Assembly: GCA_965215565.1 (NCBI GenBank)
Contig: CBDCDZ010000004.1
Location: 1,280,001 to 1,344,000, forward strand
DNA from: Trueperaceae bacterium
Lineage (GTDB): Bacteria > Deinococcota > Deinococci > Deinococcales > Trueperaceae
Length of the DNA: 64,000 bases
Reading direction: 5' to 3'
Below, one piece after another: positions 10,222 to 59,372 of this stretch (its first letter is position 1; every line of letters starts with the position of its first letter). The position numbers and the translations under genes were made by a program. A model generated the notes under the pieces. The model was not told the origin of the DNA and did no database searches. It saw only the letters and a program-made list of their open reading frames with translations.

Positions 10222-10575
10222 TTGAAGCGTCTAATCTCTCTACTCGCTCTCACGAGCACCCTCATTTTGAGCGCCTGCGATCCGGCTGTCCGGGTTGAAA
10301 ATAACGTTTTACCCACTCTCTACTCGACCAGCGTACCGCAGACCCAAGGCGAGCCCTTGGTCTTGCAGGGGCGCTACTTCGGCGGCGGTCAAAATAGCGA
10401 GAGCTACGTCATCTTGGGAGCCGACATCAGCGGTCAGGGCGGCGTCACCGTCAGACCTGACGACTGGAACGCCAAGCGCATCCGCGTCGACGTGCCCGAG
10501 GGCGCGGGTCCGGGTTACGTGTTCGTCGTCGCGAACGGCACCCGCAGCAACGGTCTACCTGCAAACCTTCGCTGA
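10222..10575 (+). CDS. Small lipoprotein, IPT/TIG-like domain
   Basis: Lipobox LSAC, L.G.YFG, W....I...VP..A..G.V.V...G..SN pattern. RBS AGGAGG. Confidence 0.75.
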   Translation: MKRLISLLALTSTLILSACDPAVRVENNVLPTLYSTSVPQTQGEPLVLQGRYFGGGQNSESYVILGADISGQGGVTVRPDDWNAKRIRVDVPEGAGPGYVFVVANGTRSNGLPANLR

Positions 10576-10703
10576 GCCGAAGACGAGACAATATGTAACG
10601 TTGAAGAGGTGGTCCAACCACCTCTTCTCTCTTTGATTTGCGCAGCTTTCGCGTAGCGAATGACAACGTTTTTGCTGCAAGCAAAACGGACTCGAGCGGT
10701 GTA

Positions 10704-10814
10704 TAGCGGTTATTAGAAGTATTAAATTGAAATAGCGCAGATATCATCCTACAATGTGCGTGCTAGTCGTTGTTCTATCATGTGAGATTGGCTCAAACCA
10801 GATGATACCTGCTA
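10704..10814. repeat. MITE-like repeat, short (about 111 bp) copy without cassettes
   Basis: TAGCGG start, AATAGCGCAGATATCAT...AATGTGCGTGC core, CTCAAACCAGATGATACCTGCTA end. Confidence 0.8.
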
Positions 10815-10874
10815 TAAACGTTTCCCCGAGCGCTTTTCTCGGTGATATGGGATGAAGCGGAATCCGTATCGGGT

Positions 10875-11030
10875 TAGCAGTTCCAAAACATACTGAGACA
10901 GATTACTGCAGGTCTCTGTCCGTAGGACTAGCGGGATTTCATCTCCGCAAGTGCGTGCCAGTTACGCAGTTTGCTGCCTAGCAACGGTAACTCGCATAGT
11001 GAGAATGTGAGAATGTCTCAAACCAGATGA
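10875..11030. repeat. MITE-like repeat copy whose right terminus is split by IS110 (remainder at 12157-12165)
   Basis: Runs TAGCAGTTCCAAAACATACTGAGAC...CTCAAACCAGATGA. The missing TACCTGCTA is found on the far side of the IS. Confidence 0.88.
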
Positions 11031-11046
11031 ACTTAGTATAGAGTTG

Positions 11047-11985
11047 TCAAGCCCCCTTCCACCTCTGTGGGTGCTGCTGAGTGACTTGCAGCATGAAACG
11101 AAAGAGTTCTCTTGCGAGATAGGTTTTGAGACTTCTTAGAGCAGCCCGGCGGGTCTTGCCTTGCTGCTGTTTCTTGTCGAGATAGGCTCTTGTCGGTTCG
11201 CTGTGGCGCAGTCTGACTTGGGCAATCATGTGAAAGGTGCGGTTGAGCCGACGGTTGCCGCCGATGTTGAGTTGCCTTCTCTTCTGACCACCAGAAGAGC
11301 GCTCGACAGGCGCACAACCTGAATACATGGCAAAGGCGTGTTGTGAACGAAAGCGTCGGATGTCACCTGCTTCAGCAAGTAGCGTGGCGGCGTGAACGAC
11401 GCCGACGCCAAAGACCTCTAAGAGTTCAGGCATCAGTTCGTCAACGAGGGCTTTCATCGCCTGCTCGAGCGTCTTGAGTTGTTCTTTAAGCACTGCAATA
11501 ACGGCTTCGACGGCTTGGCGAGCCACCTCTAGCTCAAGGCTCGCTAAGCTCAGCTTGTGCGCTGTAAGCTGTTTAGCTAGCGCTTCTCGGGTGCGGGTCA
11601 GATGTTTGAGGTCTTCAACCGCTTGCCGAGGTGCAAACGTAGTCAGCTCAGGATTAGCCAAAGCAGCCCGAGCTACGTTTTCAGCGTCTACCTCATCACT
11701 CTTCTTGCGTCCTCTTTTGCTGCGGTACTGACTCGTCAGACTCGGACTAATGTCCACAACCTTATGGTCCTGCCCGAGCAACGCTTGACTCAACCTCCGA
11801 GCAAAGGGGTTATTCGCCCCTTCAATAGCGCACCGCTGAACGTCATAGCGCTTTATCCAGTGCTCCAAAGTTGCCAAGCCCTCAGCCGTATTCGTAACGG
11901 TGCAGTGACCTAATACCTTGCCCTGTTTATCTAACGCTGCTGCGGTATGGCTCTGCGGATGTGGATCAACCCCTATAATGACCAT
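11047..11985 (-). CDS. IS110-family DEDD recombinase (transposase)
   Basis: IIGVDPH, AIEG, KSDEVDA (DEDD), coiled coil, GVG, FAMYSGCAP..RSSG (Tnp serine), GNRRL. RBS AAGGAGG. Confidence 0.96.
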   Translation of the reverse strand: MVIIGVDPHPQSHTAAALDKQGKVLGHCTVTNTAEGLATLEHWIKRYDVQRCAIEGANNPFARRLSQALLGQDHKVVDISPSLTSQYRSKRGRKKSDEVDAENVARAALANPELTTFAPRQAVEDLKHLTRTREALAKQLTAHKLSLASLELEVARQAVEAVIAVLKEQLKTLEQAMKALVDELMPELLEVFGVGVVHAATLLAEAGDIRRFRSQHAFAMYSGCAPVERSSGGQKRRQLNIGGNRRLNRTFHMIAQVRLRHSEPTRAYLDKKQQQGKTRRAALRSLKTYLARELFRFMLQVTQQHPQRWKGA

Positions 11986-11994
11986 ACAACCTCC

Positions 11995-12145
11995 TTAGGT
12001 TGCTGCTCACGGTAGCTGCTTATCCGTCTATGAGGCTACTAAGCGTCTTAGTATCAGGCAAGCTCCGTGTAGCTTAGTGAGCGAGGTGTGCAGTTCATCT
12101 GTTAGCCCTAAAGCTGATACTTGCTGGGCATCACCTCGCTTCTCT
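11995..12145 (-). ncRNA. Predicted IS110 bridge RNA (target-binding and donor-binding loops)
   Basis: Two stem-enclosed loops (12080-12140 and 12008-12069). Each holds two guides that match the insertion target or the circle junction. Exact RNA ends are unknown. Confidence 0.85.
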
Positions 12146-12185
12146 TAATATACGGATACCTGCTAAGGTGTTAGACTCAGGACTT

Positions 12186-13436
12186 ATGACCCTCCGAACT
12201 GCCAGAGGCACCTTTGATATTTTGCCCGAGGACCAACCTCGTTATAGGGCGCTCTACAGCGCGGCTGAGCGCGTGCTAGGGGGCGCGGGCGTTTTAGAAA
12301 TCGCTACGCCCATCTTCGAATATACCGAGGTCTTTACCAAGTCAGTCGGCGCGTCGTCGGACCTCGTGGTGCAAAAGGAGATGTACACCTTTGAGAAGGG
12401 CGAGCGCTCCTTGACCTTGCGTCCCGAATTTACGGCGGGCGTCCTGCGCGCCTATATCGAGAACGGGCTGAGTAGCCGCCGGACGCCTGTCAAGCTGTGG
12501 AGCAAGGGTCCGGTCTTTCGCGCCGAACGCCCTCAGCGCGGCAGGTTCCACCAGTTCCACCAGGTCAACTGTGAGTTGTTGGGGCTCGAGACGCCCCTCA
12601 TCGACGCCGAGGCGGTTGCGCTCCTCTACACGGTCCTGAGGGAATGTGGGCTCAGCGAACTGCGCGTCAAACTCGGCTCGGTAGGTGACCCCGAAGATAG
12701 GGCGCGCTACAACGATTACTTGAGAAACGAGCTTCGCGCGGCGGACCTTTCCGAAACCTCGCGAGAACGCCTGCGCCTCAACCCGATGCGCATTTTGGAC
12801 TCTAAAGACGAAAAGGACCAGGGCGTCATCCGCGATTTGAAACGTCCGCTGGACTTTCTCAACGAGGACGCTGCCGCGCACTTCGGGGCGGTCAAGGGCT
12901 ATTTGGAAGCGTGGCGTATTCCCTTCGACGTGGACGACAGCATCGTGCGCGGGCTCGACTACTACCGCCGCACCGCCTTTGAGATTCACCACGGCAGTAT
13001 CGGCGCGCAGTCCGCGCTCTGCGGCGGCGGACGTTACGACGGCCTAGTCGAGAGCATGGGCGGGCCGCCGACGCCCGGCGTCGGCTGGGCGTTCGGTGCG
13101 GAGCGCGTCTTGGACGCTATGAACGAAGAGAACGTCGCCCTCCCCGCTGCCCCGCGCCCCGCGCTCTTTCTCGTGCCGATGGACGAATTTGCTATAGGAG
13201 AGGTTGCGCAGACCGCGCTGCGCCTCCGCCCCACCTTTTGGGTTGAACATGCGTATACTAAGCGCAACCCCGGCAAGGGGCTTAAAGAGGCGGACCGCGC
13301 CGGGGCCCACTACGCCGCCCTGCGCGGCTCCAAAGAGCGCCAAGAAGGGGTTTACAGCGTGAAGCACCTGGGGTCGGGCGAGCAGACGCAGGTGCCAGAA
13401 GGTGAATTAGGGGCGTTCCTAAAAGCGCATACTTAA
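12186..13436 (+). CDS. hisS: Histidine--tRNA ligase
   Basis: RGTFD, KEMYTF, LRPEFTA, FRAERPQRGRF.QF.Q, VRGLDYY, GGGRYDGL. Confidence 0.97.
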   Translation: MTLRTARGTFDILPEDQPRYRALYSAAERVLGGAGVLEIATPIFEYTEVFTKSVGASSDLVVQKEMYTFEKGERSLTLRPEFTAGVLRAYIENGLSSRRTPVKLWSKGPVFRAERPQRGRFHQFHQVNCELLGLETPLIDAEAVALLYTVLRECGLSELRVKLGSVGDPEDRARYNDYLRNELRAADLSETSRERLRLNPMRILDSKDEKDQGVIRDLKRPLDFLNEDAAAHFGAVKGYLEAWRIPFDVDDSIVRGLDYYRRTAFEIHHGSIGAQSALCGGGRYDGLVESMGGPPTPGVGWAFGAERVLDAMNEENVALPAAPRPALFLVPMDEFAIGEVAQTALRLRPTFWVEHAYTKRNPGKGLKEADRAGAHYAALRGSKERQEGVYSVKHLGSGEQTQVPEGELGAFLKAHT

Positions 13437-38782: not shown

Positions 38783-38893
38783 TAGCACTTCCAAAACATA
38801 CTGAGACGGAGCGCCGCAGATATCATCTCCGAATGTGCGCGATAGACAGCGTTTTTTACAGTGAGAGCGTCTCAAACCAGATGATACCTGCTA
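38783..38893. repeat. MITE-like repeat, short copy
   Basis: TAGCACTTCCAAAACATACTGAGAC...GTGAGAGCGTCTCAAACCAGATGATACCTGCTA. Confidence 0.88.
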
Positions 38894-59149: not shown

Positions 59150-59372
59150 TAGCAGGTATCATCTGGTCAGCTACACTCTCAGCGATGAGAACATCGTTCA
59201 GCACGCAACATACTGAGACGGATGAGCGCTTACGGAAGTTTTGGCAACGCCAAAGGTCTCAGCGAAGCTAGCGGGATTTCATCACCGAATGTGCGTGCTA
59301 GTTAGGCACTTTTCGTAAAGCGAAACGTCGTTTTATCTAGTGGGCGTGTCTCAAACCAGATGATACCTGCTA
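59150..59372. repeat. MITE-like repeat copy with perfect 18-bp terminal inverted repeats
   Basis: TAGCAGGTATCATCTGGT (59150-59167) / ACCAGATGATACCTGCTA (59355-59372). Confidence 0.9.

Follow-up and report, generated by a model that had tools for sequence, protein, structure and literature searches.

Background

IS621 uses REPs as its natural target and has a bridge RNA of 177 nt; elements of the IS1111 group have subterminal inverted repeats and encode the guide RNA downstream of the gene. The bridge-RNA layout has already been published for IS110 elements (PMC11208160, PMC11208158), and there are earlier published reports of IS110-family elements aimed at REPs, or at inverted repeats belonging to other transposons.

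The closest described systems are IS621 and IS622 (ISCro4), from E. coli and Citrobacter, which, like the element reported here, have a DEDD plus Tnp-Ser recombinase (PMC11208160, PMC11208158, bioRxiv 10.1101/2025.05.14.653916). IS621/ISCro4 and the present IS also have the following in common. The left end, lying upstream of the gene, encodes the RNA (a predicted one in the present IS), with two internal loops and the guides ordered LTG, RTG, LDG, RDG. The LTG reads like the top strand and extends over the core, and the RTG complements the core and the right target. The handshake dinucleotides, 3' of the RTG and the RDG, fit the non-cognate DNA but do not fit the cognate DNA. The 2-bp core is duplicated, and a promoter is split across the right and left ends. 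The natural target in both cases is a repeated host sequence.

Two other systems are similar in part. ISPpu9/ISPpu10 of Pseudomonas putida (PMC12288879, bioRxiv 10.64898/2026.03.19.712850) reportedly occur likewise as several identical IS110-family copies in one repeated intergenic sequence; their target is a REP, whereas the present IS targets a MITE that has inverted ends and is flanked by 3-bp duplications. IS4321/IS5075 are likewise IS110-family elements that insert into a terminal inverted repeat belonging to a different transposable element, according to Partridge and Hall (2003).

The element and its copies

The IS110-group element occupies positions 11031-12154 (1,124 bp) of the window, i.e., of the whole 64-kb stretch of DNA that was analysed, and GA (TC in IS orientation) is duplicated on both sides of it. 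The flanks on the plus strand read CCAGAT-GA on one side and GA-TACCTGCTA on the other, and the IS termini are TC-CGTATA... (left) and ...TATACTAAGT-TC (right). The left end, 12154..11986, is non-coding over 169 nt. The element and its surroundings comprise the following features.

10875..11028, plus strand: body of the host MITE carrying the IS, left end TAGCAGTTCCA... (sequence and family consensus)
11029..11030, minus strand: core dinucleotide at the right-end junction, GA on the plus strand and hence TC when read in IS orientation, the same in 7/7 copies
11031..11046, minus strand: IS right end with the left donor ...TATACTAAGT, consisting of the 16 nt that follow the stop codon
11047..11985, minus strand: recombinase gene, 312 aa, DEDD RuvC-like and Tnp domains (ORF, Pfam and structure-chain matches)
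12155..12156, minus strand: core dinucleotide at the left-end junction (junction sequence in the copies)
12157..12165, plus strand: final 9 nt at the right terminus of the MITE, TACCTGCTA, equal to the left target in IS orientation and identical in 7/7 copies

The first-pass annotation had placed GA at 11029-30 and 12155-56, had given the target in IS orientation as TAGCAGGTA-TC-ATCTGG and had assigned the 312-aa protein to IS110. The junctions and the target are read from the sequence as it described them, every coordinate and string that it gave is found there, and the assignment agrees with both IS110 Pfam domains and with IS621 and ISCro4 as the nearest structures.

The N-terminal DEDD RuvC-like domain is PF01548 (E 6.4e-22, residues 4-149) and the C-terminal Tnp domain is PF02371 (E 1.3e-20, residues 188-268). 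The nearest solved structures are IS621 (8wt6, E 2.9e-16 by phmmer) and ISCro4 (9t56, E 2.7e-14). The recombinase is nevertheless distant from IS621, the phmmer match covering residues 30-294, and it is 312 aa long as compared with the 328-residue IS621 chain. D7, E55, D97, D100 and S231 are invariant in an alignment of four orthologues (A1); E55, D97 and D100 line up with the IS621 chain, and S231-G232 lines up with the S-G of its catalytic-serine loop. D7 we presume to be a DEDD residue, from the Pfam match and the known motif. Relatives abound in metagenomes: of 8,000 candidates scored, 223 proteins reach E <= 1e-20. Searching genome contigs with the single recombinase protein found no relative, and searching them with alignment A1 found 8 loci.

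A nucleotide search of the genome gave seven full-length copies of the IS, all listed at 100% identity, with the recombinase ORF intact and identical in each. The first-pass annotation had suggested collecting all copies and comparing their flanks; the target is the same, TAGCAGGTA-TC-ATCTGG, in 7/7, the IS junctions are identical in 7/7, and the right flanks are seven different sequences. Joining the flanks of the IS restores the sequence of 209 exact empty 17-mers. As is typical of the IS110 group, the IS lacks terminal inverted repeats, and a 2-bp core at both junctions and site-specific insertion are seen in all seven copies. Besides these, the genome contains a single decayed copy and two very short remnants of the IS left end, in which about 14 and about 27 nt of it survive; the same search found no orphan bridge-RNA genes, only these two remnants. 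The sole copy in a sister genome (G002) is interrupted shortly after the start codon. In the window the IS accounts for a 1.1-kb interruption directly upstream of hisS.

The element does not have the traits of the IS1111 group (seekRNA type): there are just 16 nt past the stop codon, and the predicted structured RNA sits on the upstream side of the gene. IS4321/IS5075, which we take to be of the IS1111 group, where the inverted repeats are subterminal and the opposite end carries the guide RNA, differ from the present IS with its 169-nt left end and its 16 nt after the stop codon.

The targeted repeat

The target of the IS is the right end of the host MITE. The repeat had been called MITE-like on first reading, and it does have short terminal inverted repeats (TAGCAG... 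and ...CTGCTA) and 3-bp target-site duplications: among the 205 copies with both ends found, the 3-bp flanks are identical in 154, as compared with 19 at 2 bp and 4 at 4 bp. Most common is a length of 111 bp (73 copies), besides which there are longer modular classes. The family is short, non-coding and multi-copy, with inverted ends and target-site duplications, as expected of MITEs, and the analysis identifies it as an abundant one in this genome. The host copy in the window would measure 165 bp without the IS, and its own 3-bp flanks differ (GGT/AGG).

The 17-mer of the repeat terminus, CCAGATGATACCTGCTA, occurs in the 4.49-Mb genome 209 times exactly; 86 more occurrences have one mismatch and 90 have two. 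The exact 14-mer target is empty at 234 places, four of them in the window, as compared with 0 for the reversed control pattern; together with the seven occupied sites this makes 241. The simple screen for an autonomous parent of the MITE, in which a left MITE end was paired with a right one at a distance of 400-4,000 bp, gave 31 pairs, with one candidate followed, and identified no parent. The candidate interval measures 1,184 bp and contains a 327-aa ORF, which proved to be a gene of a PLP-dependent enzyme (PF00291) and not of a transposase.

The predicted bridge RNA

The predicted fold of the 169-nt left end has a free energy of -57.6 kcal/mol (z = -3.70), and 0/200 shuffles fold equally well. 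The consensus that RNAalifold computes for 23 left ends consists of two stem-loops, with compensatory change in 23/28 pairs; in the consensus stems 94.5% of cells are paired vs 79.1% in shuffles (0/500 as high), and sliding one strand by 1-3 columns leaves at most 10 pairs with compensatory change. Elements of the IS110 group have a structured non-coding RNA with two loops, which their left end encodes upstream of the gene, and such an RNA is predicted here. The Rfam scan of 10500-12700 at E <= 1 found no matching family. The sequencing runs listed for this stretch were two of DNA type, both from one study. The parts of the two loops are as follows.

12080..12140, minus strand: target-binding loop, loop 1 (guides, fold, covariation)
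12140-12132 / 12088-12080, minus strand: outer stem of loop 1, 9 perfect pairs
12125..12116, minus strand: LTG AGCAAGTATC, 9/10 to the left target and core
within 12115..12104, minus strand: apical stem of loop 1 (fold)
12101..12095, minus strand: RTG CAGATGA, 7/7, complements the core and right target
12094..12093, minus strand: handshake dinucleotide AC of loop 1, complements the donor
12008..12069, minus strand: donor-binding loop, loop 2 (guides, fold, covariation)
12069-12058 / 12019-12008, minus strand: outer stem of loop 2, pairs with two bulges
12054..12047, minus strand: LDG ATACTAAG, 8/8 to the left donor
between LDG and RDG, minus strand: apical stem GCU/AGC of loop 2 (fold)
12030..12023, minus strand: RDG TAGACGGA, 7/8, complements the core and right donor
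12022..12021, minus strand: handshake dinucleotide UA of loop 2, complements the target

The first-pass annotation had read the LTG/RTG and LDG/RDG layout of IS110 bridge RNAs here, with 9/10 and 7/7 matches in loop 1 and 8/8 and 7/8 in loop 2; the counts for both loops were reproduced, and the layout stands with both handshake dinucleotides included. AC (12094..12093) is complementary to the donor GT and not to the target TA, and UA (12022..12021) is complementary to the target TA and not to the donor GT. The LTG (..UC), RTG (GA..) and RDG (..GGA) all span the core.

As a chance control, the left end was shuffled 20,000 times with dinucleotides preserved. Shuffles matching equally well or better numbered 194 for the LTG, 308 for the RTG, 218 for the LDG and 1,285 for the RDG; the LTG and RTG matches occurred together in 3/20,000, and all four together in 0/20,000.

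The single LTG mismatch, RNA A against G in the target top strand, is at the same base in 7/7 copies and in the G002 orthologue. This is the fourth LTG base, which in IS621 is the position of a natural G-T pair. The mismatch is tolerated at all seven occupied sites; none of the seven insertions lies in the LTG-perfect variant (52 variant sites, or 2 fully matching sites), a result compatible with chance. The mismatch might act as an inherent restraint on insertion, or might be the price of keeping two MITE subfamilies reachable.

The LDG matches the 8/8 upstream donor bases and none of donor position 7 and the two core bases (AUACUAAG-ACG vs donor ATACTAAG-TTC, 0/2 core bases paired). In more distant orthologues, e.g., G001 and L034, it pairs with the first core base. 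The pairing of the RDG beyond the core-proximal bases is weak; the RDG pairing of IS621 is likewise described as discontiguous.

A sigma-70-type promoter at the RE-LE junction, another trait of the IS110 group, is found in silico: TTGACA, an 18-nt spacer and TATATT.

11045..11050, minus strand: -35 hexamer TTGACA, overlapping the TGA stop codon, 14 nt from the core
12147..12152, minus strand: -10 hexamer TATATT, 18 nt from the right-end TTGACA only in the circle

The -35 hexamer is exactly 14 nt from the core in 14/20 loci examined, the present IS counted. In the integrated copy TATATT pairs only with the weak flank hexamer CTAACA (9/12 matches).

Guides and flanks in orthologues

Covariation of the guides with target and donor, which had been proposed as a check of the initial reading, was computed on the unique guide-site pairs out of 37 orthologous loci, with the guides taken as columns of a MAFFT alignment and the IS boundaries placed by motif search; the guides vary with their own flanks. 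None of 10,000 permutations, which ignore kinship among orthologues, reaches the cognate score for LTG-LT (5.54/8 vs 2.80/8 non-cognate), RTG-RT (4.40/5 vs 1.55/5), LDG-LD (7.62/9 vs 5.99/9) or RDG-RD (3.12/5 vs 2.01/5). The RTG-RT pairs are perfect in 11/20. Under the same permutations, with kinship again ignored, the handshake guide of the donor loop scores 1.36/2 against the target vs 0.60/2 non-cognate (reached in 77/10,000), and that of the target loop is weaker (1.00/2 vs 0.48/2, reached in 529/10,000). In 11/11 unique pairs, the handshake guide of the donor loop begins with a base complementary to target position 7.

Two orthologues serve as examples of retargeting: G039 has the LTG AGGTAGCATC and the RTG GACCAGA with the flanks AGGTAGCA-TC-TGGTC/T, and G001 has the RTG AATGTGA with the flank TC-ACATT. 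The LTG match is poor (3-4 of 8) at the orthologue sites L050, L051, L052, L053, L017, L035, L036 and L057. The present IS uses the first TC of TAGCAGGTA-TC-A-TC-TGG, and the guides of orthologues in two other genera specify a TC that lies three bases beyond it; every one of these guide sets also matches a multi-copy motif in its own genome.

Discussion

We believe it very probable that this IS110-group element picks its insertion site by means of a bridge RNA that its own left end encodes. The analysis demonstrates the anatomy of the element, the constancy of its site, the covariation of guides and stems, and the split promoter; the RNA itself, the circle, catalysis and programmability we infer by analogy with IS621.

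In the cycle that we propose, excision of the IS as a circle would bring the right-end TTGACA and the left-end TATATT 18 nt apart to form a strong promoter. Transcription would start near 12141-12139 and give an RNA of ~133 nt (12140..12008), running on into the recombinase mRNA. The LDG and RDG in loop 2 would hold the joined IS ends, and a tetrameric DEDD/Ser recombinase would swap strands at the TC core. After top-strand exchange, AC 3' of the RTG would pair with donor positions 6-7 (GT), and UA 3' of the RDG with target positions 6-7 (TA). The product would be an IS with a TC copy on either side, lying 9 bp within the MITE's right inverted repeat.

It may be supposed instead that the recombinase recognises the MITE terminus itself, as a DNA sequence or a hairpin, the left end being only a promoter and 5' leader with incidental matches. 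A structural cue is conceivable, the target belonging to an inverted repeat; a 2026 preprint reportedly gives a combined sequence-and-structure logic for ISPpu10, and the LTG is imperfect in all seven copies. However, the guides vary with the flanks in orthologues on quite different targets, the four guide matches never occurred jointly in the 20,000 shuffles, and the stems framing the guides show compensatory change, so that direct recognition appears to us highly improbable.

We see equally little chance that the IS is a recent fossil, its copies having spread by duplication of MITE plus IS or by homologous recombination among MITEs, with no ongoing RNA-guided transposition. The near-identical 60-nt left flanks in two pairs of copies speak for such a history, as do the decayed copy with the two remnants and the disruption of the G002 orthologue. 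Against it, the right flanks diverge immediately past the 9-nt MITE end, so that the DNA beyond differs at each of the seven copies, all of which have open and identical ORFs; the IS-bearing MITE bodies differ in length (111, 130, 132, 165 and 197 bp, by subtraction); and the MITE's own 3-bp duplication is intact in 4/6 IS-bearing MITEs with both ends found. It follows from these intact duplications that each IS entered a separate, pre-existing MITE. Returning to RNA-guided insertion, the seven copies listed at 100% identity suggest that the IS is active now.

The present IS differs from IS621 in its core (TC here vs CT), in the length of its RTG (7 nt vs 4 nt in the wild type) and in the reach of its LDG, which excludes donor position 7 and the core, while that of IS621 extends only to the first core base. 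It also has no 5' stem-loop ahead of the target loop, unlike IS621, and for this reason the RNA is predicted at ~133 nt. The 312-aa protein, the short predicted RNA lacking a 5' stem-loop, and the LDG off the core would together mark a compact lineage. It is tempting to propose that this lineage diversified in Trueperaceae beside one repeat family, its guides shifting along a shared terminal motif and not to new targets; we regard this as possible but doubtful.

The element is a clear new example of the mechanism described in 2024; the mechanism itself is not new, and the understanding of how IS110 elements work is unchanged. Our literature search found no paper linking Trueperaceae with IS110. 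The bridge-recombinase field gains one more natural orthologue, well characterised in silico; the genome sequence directly gives its target, donor, TC core, 7-nt RTG and both handshake dinucleotides. The related elements that shifted register on related repeat motifs also offer a natural experiment on guide evolution.

One further feature adjoins the ATG of the recombinase gene.

11986..12003, minus strand: hairpin around the ribosome-binding site AAGGAGG (11996..11990), from the MFE fold

This predicted hairpin may have a regulatory role, and a CACC...GGTG arrangement resembling it is seen in orthologues.

The element and its predicted guide RNA

The insertion sequence is 1,124 bp long (11031-12154) and has GA, the core on the plus strand, on either side (11029-30 and 12155-56). 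The strings and coordinates of the first-pass annotation were read back against the window sequence, and all were right. The element consists of the following parts.

12154..11986, minus strand: non-coding left end, 169 nt
11985..11047, minus strand: recombinase ORF, 312 aa
After the ORF, minus strand: right end, 16 nt

The recombinase contains the domains DEDD_Tnp_IS110 (PF01548; residues 4-149, E 6.4e-22) and Transposase_20 (PF02371; residues 188-268, E 1.3e-20). The only solved relatives found by sequence are the recombinases of IS621, the E. coli model system (8wt6, E 2.9e-16), and of its Citrobacter relative ISCro4 (9t56, E 2.7e-14). Residues S231-G232 align to the IS621 serine loop, and D7, E55, D97, D100 and S231 are unchanged across four orthologues with 47-75% identity to the recombinase. 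Judged by its sequence, the element belongs to the IS110 group of bridge-RNA recombinases. Relatives are numerous: of the 8,000 scored candidates, 223 proteins had E <= 1e-20.

The left end has a predicted fold of -57.6 kcal/mol (z = -3.70), and 0 of 200 shuffles were as low. RNAalifold, applied to 23 left ends, gives two stem-loops, each with an outer stem, a guide-bearing internal loop and a 3-bp apical stem. Compensatory changes are found in 23 of its 28 pairs, paired cells amount to 94.5% versus 79.1% in shuffles, the covariation score is 0.503 versus 0.199, and on all five measures the observed values were unmatched (0/500 shuffles). When one strand was slid by 1-3 columns, at most 10 pairs had double changes, in a control that favours the structure, since the latter was derived from the same sequences. 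No Rfam family matched.

The four guides, written as RNA, are as follows.

12125..12116, minus strand: left target guide (LTG), AGCAAGUAUC, 9/10 to left target and core
12101..12095, minus strand: right target guide (RTG), CAGAUGA, 7/7 to the complement of core and right target
12054..12047, minus strand: left donor guide (LDG), AUACUAAG, 8/8 to left donor
12030..12023, minus strand: right donor guide (RDG), UAGACGGA, 7/8 to the complement of core and right donor

These match counts, proposed earlier, are borne out on the sequence. When the left end was shuffled 20,000 times with its dinucleotides preserved, equally good matches arose 194 times for LTG, 308 for RTG, 218 for LDG and 1,285 for RDG; all four together never did. 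The proposed likeness to IS621 also holds: in strand logic, order and inclusion of the core, the guides agree with the definition in PMC11208160. The element further has handshake guides, as defined in PMC11208158, which the first-pass annotation did not mention. The dinucleotide AC directly 3' of RTG is complementary to donor positions 6-7 (GT), not to the target TA; the UA directly 3' of RDG is complementary to target positions 6-7 (TA), not to the donor GT.

Insertion sites and the host repeat

The source genome (4.49 Mb in 4 contigs, 58% G+C) contains seven full-length copies, each listed at 100% identity. The prediction that their flanks are always the repeat terminus was checked and holds for 7/7: one side reads ...CTCAAACCAGAT-GA and the other GA-TACCTGCTA, and past the 9 nt of the latter the seven flanks are mutually unrelated. 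In the element's orientation the target is AGCAGGTA-TC-ATCTG, and the joined ends read ATACTAAGT-TC-CGTATA. The unsplit 17-mer CCAGATGATACCTGCTA is present in 209 exact copies, with 86 more that have one mismatch and 90 that have two. A count of the 14-mer target GCAGGTATCATCTG gave 234, against 0 for the reversed control pattern. Inside the window there are four empty targets, the one at 10799-10812 lying some 220 bp away from the occupied site.

10797-10813, 38878-38891, 59152-59165, 59357-59370: examples of the MITE terminus in the window

Aligned with one another, 70 of the 209 exact 17-mer sites yield a consensus roughly 115 bp long, from TAGCAGTTCCAC... to ...CCAGATGATACCTGCTA. A left end, sought within 300 nt of the 295 sites with at most one mismatch, was found at 205. 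The commonest length is 111 bp (73 copies), with longer, modular classes near 132, 153-163, 174-188 and 199-207 bp. The flanks are identical at 3 bases in 154 of the 205 copies, at 2 bases in 19 and at 4 bases in 4. Considering these flanks and the end sequences (TAGCAG...CTGCTA), the repeat, whose family is abundant genome-wide, has short inverted ends and 3-bp target-site duplications, and its earlier description as MITE-like is therefore justified. A second subfamily ends in CCAAATGATACTTGCTA. A simple screen of the source genome found no autonomous parent of the MITE.

The element sits 9 bp inside the right MITE end. Both MITE ends were found for 6 of the 7 occupied repeats, whose bodies vary in length, and the 3-bp duplication of the MITE itself is intact in 4 of these 6; each insertion therefore entered a separate, complete MITE.

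12168-13436, plus strand: hisS ORF, probable ATG at 12186

The occupied MITE ends about 20-30 nt ahead of the likely hisS start (within 12157-12190), so the 1.1-kb insertion parts hisS from its former upstream DNA. A simple scan gave no outward plus-strand promoter.

Two MITEs of the source genome (C4:3341776-3341813 and C4:160146-160183) retain only the last ~14-27 nt of the element's left end beside TACCTGCTA, with the remaining element and part of the MITE lost at short shared sequences. Such loci resemble what deletion would leave of old insertions into the same target. A decayed copy with an internal deletion (C4:3452692-3453285; 83% identity over the matched part) has an intact right-end junction and is followed by a second copy of the ~70 bp of MITE sequence that also precedes it. 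The sole copy in the sister species (G002:C2, upstream of 567375) is a 92%-identical orthologue with the same guides and target, its reading frame broken by roughly 90-100 nt of foreign sequence directly past the start codon. The MITE terminal motif also forms short tandem arrays (C4:179849-179946, period ~27 bp; C4:1994337-1994450, ~23 bp), much as in the related genome G048, where the arrays have a period of 21-33 bp; every unit could serve as a target for the element.

Guide covariation among orthologues

Relatives came from 81 related genomes (7 with a match, the source genome included), a search of genome contigs (8 loci) and metagenome contigs (23 loci); 37 loci were used. Left out were six more source-genome copies (L014, L021, L024, L027-L029) identical to the window copy L026, the duplicates L032 and L033 (of L017 and L018), and the partial L018, L020, L023 and L031. 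Boundaries were placed by motif search, and guide columns were read off a MAFFT alignment; gapped or incomplete pairs were removed, core positions were excluded and the rest was reduced to unique guide-site pairs.

Mean matches of guides to cognate and non-cognate sites
LTG and left target: 28 unique pairs, 5.54/8 versus 2.80/8
RTG and right target: 20 unique pairs (11 perfect, 18 with at most one mismatch), 4.40/5 versus 1.55/5
LDG and left donor: 13 unique pairs, 7.62/9 versus 5.99/9
RDG and right donor: 17 unique pairs, 3.12/5 versus 2.01/5

The expected covariation of guides with target and donor was thus obtained in all four pairings, the observed mean being reached in 0 of 10,000 permutations each time, with permutations that ignore relatedness among orthologues. 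Against the guide reading, eight orthologue sites match their own LTG at just 3-4 of 8 bases. The donor-loop handshake guide is complementary to target positions 6-7 at 1.36/2 versus 0.60/2 (77/10,000 permutations), its first base being complementary in 11/11 pairs; the target-loop one is weaker (1.00/2 versus 0.48/2; 529/10,000). Neither handshake guide paired with its cognate DNA above background in the orthologue set.

The earlier interpretation, an RNA-guided recombinase which uses a mobile repeat as its multi-copy target, is supported wherever sequence data can test it. The IS110 family is already known to target repeats or the ends of other transposons; the element, a good candidate orthologue, illustrates the mechanism neatly in nature but does not represent a new kind of system. 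In the literature searched, we found no paper on IS110 together with Truepera, and the cluster may already be catalogued in the supplements of the 2024 and 2025 papers.

Predicted promoter

11050..11045, minus strand: -35 hexamer TTGACA, overlapping the stop codon, 14 nt from the core
12152..12147, minus strand: -10 hexamer TATATT, 2 nt inside the left end

Once the ends are joined through one core copy, the two hexamers are spaced by 18 nt, the arrangement described as a split promoter for IS621 in PMC11208158. Of 20 loci examined, 14, among them the window copy, have the -35 hexamer at a distance of exactly 14 nt from the core. When the element is integrated, the only partner of the -10 hexamer is a weak flank hexamer (9/12 matches). 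The predicted split promoter fits the weak RNA expression from integrated IS621 loci that PMC13626964 reports. With a start about 7 nt beyond the -10 hexamer, transcription would begin at the foot of the target-loop stem, and the RNA would therefore have no 5' stem-loop; the two loops together span 12140..12008 (133 nt). A predicted hairpin (12003..11986) encloses the ribosome-binding site and may have a regulatory role.

Differences from IS621

The core is TC in 36 of the 37 loci (L041 has GT at the aligned LTG core positions), whereas that of IS621 is CT. In the clade of the window element LDG ends short of donor position 7 and the core, while in more distant orthologues it pairs the first core base, as is described for IS621 (PMC11208158). 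LTG has A where all seven targets and that of the sister-species orthologue have G. The mismatch falls on base four of the 9-nt LTG, a position at which the IS621 structure (PMC11208158) shows a non-canonical G-T pair. The CCAAATGATACTTGCTA subfamily (52 exact 14-mers of that type in the source genome) matches LTG perfectly and would give a G-T pair opposite RTG; it contains 0 insertions, which with only 7 events proves nothing.

The register differs among relatives as well. The guides of the orthologue in G039 specify AGGTAGCA-TC-TGGTC and those of the orthologue in G048 AGGTATCA-TC-TCGTC, both using a TC 3 nt downstream of that used by the window element. The own flanks in G039 read as a variant of the same repeat end. 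Each motif is multi-copy in its own genome: when one mismatch is allowed, G039 has 25 matches; G048 has at least 54 exact ones, and 122 when one mismatch is allowed, part of the G048 matches lying in short tandem arrays. The reversed controls gave 0.

The source genome has a second, distantly related IS110 element (C4:421041-421967), 56% identical at the protein level, that carries a TAA stop in frame. It has a two-loop left end of its own, and its target, TTGGTCCA-TC-CGCTA, differs from that of the window element; its guides match this target at 6/8 (LTG) and just 2/5 (RTG). In two orthologues (L037 and L041) the left-end tip is duplicated (TCCGTAT... twice, 12 and 47 nt apart), perhaps left by an aberrant recombination event at the donor end.
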